From assembly GCF_046105845.1 (NCBI RefSeq), contig NZ_CP151004.1: a stretch of DNA of 64,000 bases. One strand, given 5' to 3'. Source of the DNA: Escherichia coli (GTDB taxonomy: Bacteria; Pseudomonadota; Gammaproteobacteria; Enterobacterales; Enterobacteriaceae). Numbering within the stretch: position 1 is the first letter of the stretch; each line of letters begins with the position of its first letter. The position numbers and the translations under genes were made by a program. The notes under the pieces are model-generated. The model ran no database searches and was not told the origin of the DNA. It worked only from the letters and a program-made list of their open reading frames with translations. This document shows, piece after piece, positions 4,273 to 4,977 of the stretch.

Positions 4273-4977
4273 ATGAAATTCAATCTATCTAATTTATCAG
4301 CAGTTTTACTCGCATCAGGTATGCTGATGTCAACTGCGGTAACCGCTGCGCCAGGCGATGCATCACAATTTGGTGGTGCGGATACAGACTGGAGCACCGT
4401 TGATTATCCAAAACTCACCGATATGGATAACAACACCGATGCGATGGGCGGAAACATCCGCTTTACTGGTCGTGTGGTTAAAGCGACGTGTAAGGTTGCT
4501 ACAGAATCGAAACAGATTGAAGTGGTACTGCCAGTCGTACCTTCTAACGCTTTCACGGGCATTGATACCGAAGCAACGGGCGCCAGTAACCAGACTGACT
4601 TCAACATTAAACTGACTGATTGTAGCAATACGGACAGTCAAAACATTGAATTTCGTTTTACTGGCGTAGCAGACGGTGCCAACCAGACGCTTGCCAATGA
4701 AGTGGAAGGAGCTACTGATGCTGATGGTACTGGCGAAGCGGGAGCTACAGGTGTAGGGATTCGTATTTATTCTAAAAACACGACAACTGATGGCCTGATT
4801 AAACTGAACACACAAACTCCCCAGGGGAGTAGTTCTTCAGCAGCCTACGTGATTCCTGGCGATGCTGCCACTCATGATTTTACTGCGGCATTTACCGCGG
4901 GCTATGCTCAGAACGGTAGTACCGTTGCACCAGGTCTGGTGAAATCGACGGCAAGTTTCGTCGTGCTGTACGAATAA
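4273..4977 (+). CDS. fimbrial major subunit (chaperone-usher pilin), 234 aa
   Basis: N-terminal signal peptide MKFNLSNLSAVLLASGMLMSTAVTAA; conserved pilin cysteine (RFTGRVVKATCKV; second Cys in KLTDCSN); C-terminal beta-strand ...STASFVVLYE typical of the pilin donor-strand acceptor fold; first gene of the operon with a good RBS. Confidence 0.78.
   Translation: MKFNLSNLSAVLLASGMLMSTAVTAAPGDASQFGGADTDWSTVDYPKLTDMDNNTDAMGGNIRFTGRVVKATCKVATESKQIEVVLPVVPSNAFTGIDTEATGASNQTDFNIKLTDCSNTDSQNIEFRFTGVADGANQTLANEVEGATDADGTGEAGATGVGIRIYSKNTTTDGLIKLNTQTPQGSSSSAAYVIPGDAATHDFTAAFTAGYAQNGSTVAPGLVKSTASFVVLYE

Follow-up and report, generated by a model that had tools for sequence, protein, structure and literature searches.

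The first gene of a fimbrial operon in this stretch of Escherichia coli DNA encodes a major pilin that is considerably longer than its relatives. We ask where in the protein the additional residues lie, and what they may do in the fibre. The window, i.e., the whole stretch of 64,000 nucleotides that was analysed, carries the gene at positions 4273-4977 of the plus strand as an unbroken open reading frame of 234 codons (705 nt). In the first-pass annotation the product was described as an unusually long, acidic major pilin of a chaperone-usher operon, and this description is borne out. The protein, AufA, has 234 aa, compared with a median of 181 aa and a range of 161-220 aa in the 99 nearest pilin families, and is about 50 residues longer than related pilins. 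These families are the full-length matches from an exhaustive search of 1.84 billion representative proteins, together with ElfA of E. coli K-12, with one representative taken for each 50%-identity cluster. In the alignments, the excess of about 50 residues is made up of a tail of 33 residues, which accounts for about half of it, and of roughly 22 residues that are distributed over five loops.

The open reading frame is almost certainly aufA, which encodes the major subunit of the Auf fimbria, with the architecture that is described below. In the window, which is chromosomal, glgA and glgP (1343-3790) are followed by seven fimbrial genes (4273-11464), and then by glpD (11970-13490, minus strand), glpE, glpG and glpR. 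Thus aufA is the first gene of a seven-gene operon in the island between glgP and glpD, which is the orthologous position. The products are, in order, a pilin, a PapD-type chaperone, a PapC/FimD-type usher, two pilins, a second chaperone and a two-domain adhesin-like subunit, and the domains that define the chaperone-usher context are encoded beside AufA by aufB, aufC and aufF. The G+C content of the fimbrial block is about 40%, compared with 52-56% in its flanks. The features of the operon are as follows.

3791-4272, plus strand: AT-rich intergenic region between glgP and aufA, 482 nt, about 70% identical to its counterpart in CFT073; presumed promoter or regulatory region of auf
4273-4977, plus strand: aufA coding sequence, 234 aa, a divergent allele (open reading frame; PF00419; 85% identity to CFT073 AufA; cluster names)
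5098-5850, plus strand: aufB, periplasmic chaperone (PapD_N and PapD_C; the RefSeq coordinates agree in a near-identical genome)
5892-8483, plus strand: aufC, outer-membrane usher (Usher, PapC_N and PapC_C; 50% identical to K-12 ElfC)
8474-9046, plus strand: aufD, minor pilin of normal length (PF00419; the RefSeq start corresponds to position 8513 of the window)
9054-9578, plus strand: aufE, minor pilin of normal length (174 aa), without a tail (PF00419 from aa 34)
9520-10320, plus strand: aufF, second chaperone (PapD_N and PapD_C)
10313-11464, plus strand: aufG, two-domain tip adhesin-like subunit, intact in the window (PF00419 over the C-terminal half, aa 225-383)

The match of PF00419 to AufA covers aa 62-233 and scores 77.3 bits, compared with a curated gathering score of 25.6. 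The same 705-nt coding sequence is present in RefSeq for a 99.7%-identical genome, where it is called "fimbrial protein", and for CFT073. In the latter strain the loci C_RS19945 to C_RS19920 (c4214 to c4208) are aufA to aufF, and the operon is written aufABCDEFG (PMC5956150). The auf genes have also been placed in the glpD..glgP genomic region, GR24 (PMC12928451). The 90%-identity cluster that includes the window type carries the depositors' label "Auf fimbriae major subunit AufA", and P0001, which represents it, shares 99% identity with the window protein. This cluster also takes in E. marmotae and the cryptic Escherichia clades. The aufA gene and its protein are therefore already known, and they are found in hundreds of annotated genomes. 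At the other end of the operon, aufG resembles FimH and LpfD weakly, with scores under the curated cut-offs.

AufA is not a FimA, a FimI or an LpfA. Its scores against the NCBIfam equivalogs are 53.3 bits for FimA (NF011741, cut-off 140), 60 bits for FimI (cut-off 300) and 61.9 bits for LpfA (NF011756, cut-off 221), and since none of these cut-offs is reached, all three assignments were rejected. AufA does have in common with FimA and FimI the fold, the GGxhxFxGxhh motif of the donor strand, the disulphide pair, the C-terminal Tyr and the type of operon. The sequence identity is 24-30%, and whereas FimA and FimI have few residues before the donor strand, AufA has 33, in addition to about 22 extra residues in its loops. 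In the elf/ycb operon of K-12, ElfA (YcbQ) is, like AufA, a major subunit encoded by the first gene, and the usher ElfC is 50% identical to AufC. However, ElfA is a protein of 179 aa without a tail that aligns only from G60 of AufA, with 31% identity, and the gene order downstream of the usher is unlike that of auf. Auf and Ycb fimbriae have been described as closely related and mutually exclusive (PMC3559732).

The AufA proteins of the window and of CFT073 both have 234 aa and are 85% identical, with 234/234 aa collinear and 0 gaps. The two operons have in common the site between glgP and glpD, the order of the seven genes, and the tail, donor strand and loops of AufA. They are collinear throughout, with 66-85% aa identity between the auf proteins. 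At the nucleotide level, the identity to CFT073 is 70.6-77.6% for the auf genes and 78% for aufA, compared with 97.6% for the flanking glgP. Judged by sequence, the operon of the window is a separate, divergent lineage of auf. Near-identical copies of the window aufA and usher genes, defined by a megablast match with at least 95% identity at the best place, are found in 228 of the 5426 complete E. coli genomes. In a further 558 of these genomes aufA gives only a match of 60-80%, as it does in CFT073. All aufA copies in the complete E. coli genomes are chromosomal, and there is one per genome. The two operons also differ towards glpD, since aufG has an internal stop in the RefSeq record of CFT073 whereas it is intact in the window, and since CFT073 has three hypothetical genes between aufG and glpD that are absent from the window.

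The best overall explanation of the gene, which we regard as rather probable, is an AufA with a signal peptide, an acidic tail, a donor strand and a FimA-like core, in which the tail would be flexible and exposed. The parts of the protein are as follows.

4273-4347, plus strand: predicted Sec signal peptide, aa 1-25 (MKFNLSNLSAVLLASGMLMSTAVTA, then A), read from the sequence and aligned with the signal peptides of other pilins
4348-4446, plus strand: family-specific acidic N-terminal tail, aa 26-58 (APGDASQFGGADTDWSTVDYPKLTDMDNNTDAM), from alignments, charge, pLDDT and dN/dS
4447-4485, plus strand: donor strand, aa 59-71 (GGNIRFTGRVVKA), aligned with GGTIHFEGKLVNA of self-complemented FimA (PDB 6erj)
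4486-4974, plus strand: Ig-like pilin core, aa 72-234, with the Cys73-Cys117 pair and the penultimate Tyr233 (AlphaFold2, Foldseek and alignment)
4702-4731, plus strand: largest internal loop expansion, aa 144-153 (VEGATDADGT), with an occupancy of 0-0.3 in other pilins and gaps in the FimA alignment

The start of the protein bears directly on its length. Residues 1-25 begin with a basic n-region (MK), which is followed by a hydrophobic core and by V-T-A at -3 to -1, and cleavage would be expected at VTA/A26. That the extra length is an annotation artefact, with the true start further downstream and a mature protein of standard length, is hardly credible. Some database entries do begin at M17 or M19, with 218 and 216 aa, respectively. 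However, these starts keep the entire tail and destroy the signal peptide, and there is no Met between the signal peptide and the tail. Moreover, a Shine-Dalgarno-like sequence, AAAGGAAAGG, is located 6 nt 5' of the ATG at 4273, and the residues of the signal peptide are conserved in all homologues, with zero non-synonymous changes relative to CFT073. We reject a downstream start codon for aufA because the signal peptide would go and the tail would stay. The first-pass annotation had named such a start, with a mature protein that aligns with standard pilins, as the finding that would overturn its claim, and the starts at M17 and M19 do not provide it.

The tail (aa 26-58) sits between the putative cleavage site and the donor strand (aa 59-71). 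All matches of AufA to pilins in the PDB and in NCBIfam begin at aa 51-59, and the match of Pfam PF00419 begins at aa 62. Each of the thirteen NCBIfam pilin profiles aligns from aa 51-59 of AufA onto profile positions 17-30, just past the signal peptides, and in the PDB entries for FimI and FimA the residues at aa 54-57 of AufA are paired with residues 4-9 of the chains. Since the matching pilins begin directly past their own signal peptides, aa 26-58 extend the protein at its N-terminus and are not inserted into the fold. This segment has no counterpart in the PDB pilins or the NCBIfam profiles aligned, and the counterpart of aa ~24-47 is also absent from the 99 other pilin families, with zero occupancy. 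Met1 and the conserved Gly of the donor strand are 66 residues apart in AufA, compared with a median distance of 35 in 98 other pilins (IQR 32-39, maximum 55).

These alignments modify the earlier claim that AufA carries two insertions. Both of the stretches quoted for it are present as written (aa 26-60, APGDASQFGGADTDWSTVDYPKLTDMDNNTDAMGG; aa 143-174, EVEGATDADGTGEAGATGVGIRIYSKNTTTDG), and AufA does have extra residues in each. The first, however, is an extension at the N-terminus that does not lie in the fold, and the second amounts to about 8-10 residues (aa 144-153) and not to 32, the remainder including the conserved strand ATGVGIRI, which the loop at aa 144-153 directly precedes. Smaller expansions of the core are found at aa 100-103, 171-172, 184-189 and 196-198, and together with aa 144-151/153 they come to roughly 22 residues. 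Inside the loop insert there is a 13-nt direct repeat (4708-4720 and 4741-4753, with a spacing of 33 nt), which may be due to chance.

An extension before the donor strand is rare but not unique, and that of AufA is the longest in this sample. A real extension is present in only three of the 98 sampled families, i.e., P0070, P0098 and P0105. These are uncharacterised pilins, at most 32% identical to AufA overall, that have their own low-complexity extensions of 20-27 residues (Gly, Ser, Thr and Asp). The extensions are shorter than the AufA tail and have no sequence similarity to it. In P0118, P0049 and P0078 the distances are greater than 47 residues and appear to be due to upstream start calls. 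P0028 (226 aa), the best non-Auf match, was considered as a long-tailed pilin and rejected, since a mis-called upstream start is followed there by a normal signal peptide. We found no description of an N-terminal extension of AufA in the searchable literature, nor any statement there that AufA owes its extra length to a conserved acidic tail ahead of the donor strand.

The tail contains 7 Asp and 1 Lys in its 33 residues and has a net charge of -6. The net charge of mature AufA is -13, compared with a median of -5 in other pilins. In all four diverged homologues the tail falls on the disordered side of the charge-hydropathy boundary, whereas the core does not. The tail is 32-33 aa long in E. 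coli, in the Citrobacter freundii homologue P0006 (77% identical) and in the 71%-identical homologue P0008, and 15 of its 33 positions are invariant in the four diverged homologues. The invariant positions make up the motif D-x-x-W-[ST]-T-x-[DE]-Y-P-x-[LI]-T-D-[MI]-D-[ND]-N, which is kept in homologues of as little as 71-77% identity. A comparison of the window with CFT073 gives a dN/dS of 0.13 for the tail, 0.06 for the loop at aa 141-160 and 0.07 overall, and by this measure the tail is under purifying selection. A search of PDB sequences with the tail alone gave no match even at E <= 10. An origin of the tail by internal duplication is unsupported, since no convincing repeat ties 4348-4446 to the rest of the gene.

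The core and the donor strand are those of a chaperone-usher pilin. The mature protein was modelled as a monomer with AlphaFold2, using an alignment of 83 sequences. In this alignment neither C73 nor C117 varies and Y233 hardly does, and the conserved Gly, too, is at least nearly invariant. The pLDDT of the core is mostly above 90, and the enlarged loop is modelled confidently. In the Foldseek search the best match to the core is FimA (9fwz_E, TM 0.88, rmsd 2.2 Å). The top 45 PDB matches are all single-domain chaperone-usher pilins, mostly FimA, FimI, FimF and FimG, and they also include CS20, PapA and a Burkholderia pilin. The donor strand contains N61-I62-R63-F64-T65-G66-R67-V68-V69 and is followed by C73, and 12 of its 13 positions are invariant in the AufA family.

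The tail is modelled with low confidence in the monomer (pLDDT 45-64), where mature residues 1-17 have a pLDDT below 50 and residues 18-40 have values of 48-64. We also built a tandem construct for donor-strand exchange, which consists of a core that lacks its N-terminus, a 30-residue linker, the full mature subunit, a linker, and the tail with the donor strand. Matching constructs were built for 22 homologues. In the tandem model both donor strands are beta strands (pLDDT 65-86), and both copies of the tail have a pLDDT of 29-44. As evidence of disorder, the low confidence of these models is weak, because the tail is covered by four sequences and the construct is built without subunit n-1. 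A pilin alignment and an AlphaFold model with donor-strand complementation had been proposed as the check on the earlier claim. They support the core and the donor strand, and they leave the tail without a confident structure.

Donor-strand exchange is the established mechanism of FimA (type 1) and PapA (P) pili, and by analogy AufA would polymerise into a surface fibre in the same way. AufA would be exported by Sec, and its folding and capping in the periplasm would fall to AufB. Assembly would take place at the usher, AufC, where each incoming AufA would insert its donor strand into the groove of the subunit before it and so displace the chaperone strand. The conserved Gly of I62-F64-G66-V68 would occupy the P4 position. 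With Gly at P4, the tail would extend from the P1 end of the strand, and it should thus leave the acceptor subunit at its far end, beside subunit n-1.

For the role of the tail, we tentatively favour a flexible and exposed acidic appendage, which would provide one polyanionic tail per subunit along the fibre. This reading is favoured because of the acidic composition of the tail and because no structure is predicted for it. However, the fixed length and the aromatic/proline motif are more in keeping with a segment that becomes folded when it binds than with a brush that is disordered throughout, and the central motif W-[ST]-T-x-[DE]-Y-P-x-[LI]-T-D-[MI]-D-[ND]-N may serve to dock the tail on an adjacent subunit. 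Alternatively, the tail could be an ordered strap that forms on polymerisation, with aa 26-58 of subunit n+1 folding onto n and/or n-1 and stabilising or stiffening the fibre. We consider this possible but unlikely. A tail at the P1 end of the donor strand would have the right geometry, as far as can be deduced from donor-strand exchange, and its hydrophobic, aromatic and proline positions are conserved (F33, W40, Y45-P46, L/I48 and M/I51). Its length is also constant, at 32-33 aa out to 71% identity, and a dN/dS of 0.13 is consistent with a constrained segment of this kind. Against this, AlphaFold2 placed neither copy of the tail confidently by the acceptor (pLDDT 29-44), in a model with no n-1 subunit and a shallow alignment of the tail, and the tail is strongly acidic and on the disordered side of the boundary. 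Such a strap would resemble, in enlarged form, the short N-terminal 'staple' of PapA rods or the 'clinch' contacts of archaic Csu pili.

The acidic residues themselves allow two further readings. The clusters TDMDNNTD in the tail and ATDADGTGE in the loop could bind Ca2+ or other divalent cations, and could in this way bridge fibres or rigidify the tail. Metal binding was among the suggestions of the first-pass annotation, but we judge it improbable. The tail has its 7 Asp in 33 residues, and the spacing of D50, D52, N54 and D56 recalls that of positions 1, 3, 5 and 7 in an EF-hand-type loop, with D50, D52 and N54 invariant in four homologues. Yet D56 is variable, with NNDSAM at this place in P0008, and positions 6 (Gly) and 12 (Glu/Asp) of an EF-hand are unmatched, being T55 and N61. 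In addition, the tail matches no solved structure at E <= 10, and Pfam and NCBIfam give no calcium-binding domain. The EF-hand-like resemblance may thus serve as a lead only. Less probable still is a reading of the extra segments as hypervariable antigenic loops shaped by diversifying selection, which goes back to the main suggestion of the first-pass annotation, and our results do not uphold it. The loops are expected to be surface-exposed, and among the window-type alleles there are polymorphic positions at 6/33 of the tail and 5/18 of the loop at aa 141-158, compared with 6/69 of the core at aa 72-140. However, this modest enrichment is what surface exposure leads one to expect and is not hypervariability. 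The dN/dS values of the tail (0.13) and of the loop (0.06) are far under 1, and there are zero indels between the two E. coli lineages. The pattern EVEG..DAD..G..GATGVG and the tail motif are kept in both P0006 of C. freundii and P0008, and the least conserved stretch is aa 179-200 (8/22 invariant), which belongs to neither of the quoted segments.

Whether flexible, as we favour, or ordered, the tail would be of interest for what is reported of Auf fimbriae. They are commoner in uropathogenic than in faecal E. coli and are produced in vivo, and they have no assigned receptor, haemagglutination activity or fitness role (PMC5956150). Overexpression of tosR lowers attachment to bladder cells, and deletion of auf abolished this TosR-induced drop; in the authors' suggestion, Auf hinders other adhesins sterically (PMC5956150). 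The tail could be an Auf-specific functional module, either an inter-subunit strap that reaches the subunit two ahead or an anti-adhesive polyanionic brush, although we would give this idea a rather small chance. If the strap were true, gamma-type chaperone-usher fibres would gain a quaternary contact of a new kind. If the brush were true, the reported interference of Auf with attachment would have a physical explanation. More generally, a tail that alters the mechanics or the surface charge of the fibre could explain Auf as a modulator of adhesins and biofilm and not as a classical adhesin, and a long appendage before the donor strand would add structural variation to the chaperone-usher repertoire. 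The acidic tail itself is a correct but modest observation on a known, annotated gene, and the kind of system is unchanged by it.

Two observations concern the expression of the operon. In the region between glgP and aufA (3791-4272), promoter-like hexamers were no commoner than in shuffled sequences, and no promoter was assigned there. In the usual arrangement of such operons, the message of the major subunit differs from those of the assembly genes downstream in being stabilised or attenuated. The gap between aufA and aufB contains a perfect 15-bp inverted repeat, or RNA hairpin, at 4989-5024 on the plus strand, with a folding energy of -19.3 kcal/mol (z = -4.95) that was equalled by 0/200 shuffles. 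This hairpin would fit a message for AufA that is stabilised, or attenuated, relative to those of the assembly genes downstream.

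Over its whole length, the auf operon (window 4273-11464) shares just 70-78% nucleotide identity with its counterpart in UPEC CFT073 (9205-16370 of that locus), versus 97.6% identity for the adjoining glgP. Because of this difference in nucleotide identity, we infer that the same chromosomal site is held by two deep auf lineages. The 90%-identity cluster to which the window type belongs also includes E. marmotae and members of the cryptic Escherichia clades. The G+C content of the auf block (window 4001-11000) is 38-42%, and that of the flanking glg and glp genes is 52-56%, as would fit an island gained by horizontal transfer.

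The two loci also differ at the distal end of the operon. The RefSeq record of CFT073 marks aufG (15240-16370) as a pseudogene interrupted by an internal stop; in the window, aufG is intact. In addition, three hypothetical genes separate aufG from glpD in CFT073 (16544-18632), and these are absent from the corresponding gap in the window (11465-11969). In a near-identical genome, a frameshifted remnant is the sole annotation in this gap. The only match to an Rfam family across the 64-kb window is found here:

11843-11885, + strand: ES036 (CssrF) sRNA, scoring 46.8 bits (gathering score 37.6).

Divergence from CFT073 is uneven along aufA. In the 5' part of the gene (window 4273-4446), dS is 0.41 for the signal peptide and 0.64 for the acidic tail that follows it. 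In the remainder it is far higher, being above 2 or saturated. The low 5' values suggest either a recombination breakpoint or a nucleotide-level constraint near the gene start. Further downstream, the loop expansion GATDADGTGEA|GATG is flanked on both sides by a short direct repeat:

4708-4720 and 4741-4753: GGAGCTACTGATG / GGAGCTACAGGTG, 33-nt spacing.

The repeat could be what remains of an 11-codon duplication from which the larger loop arose, or simply a product of chance.

AufA is not the only pilin with an extension ahead of the donor strand. Three pilins recovered by the exhaustive protein search (P0070, P0098 and P0105), representing three unrelated, uncharacterised families, have a low-complexity stretch of 20-27 residues that separates the signal peptide from the donor strand. 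Given these segments, pre-donor-strand tails may be a recurrent yet undescribed variation among chaperone-usher pilins.

Immediately 3' of aufA, starting 12 nt past the stop codon, there is a perfect inverted repeat:

4989-5024: 15-bp inverted repeat with a 6-nt spacer.

Its predicted RNA fold has an energy of -19.3 kcal/mol (z = -4.95), and an equally good fold was obtained in none of 200 shuffles. The terminator scan made no call at this hairpin because it is AT-rich. The hairpin probably acts as a stabiliser or attenuator by which the proportion of major subunit to assembly proteins is set.
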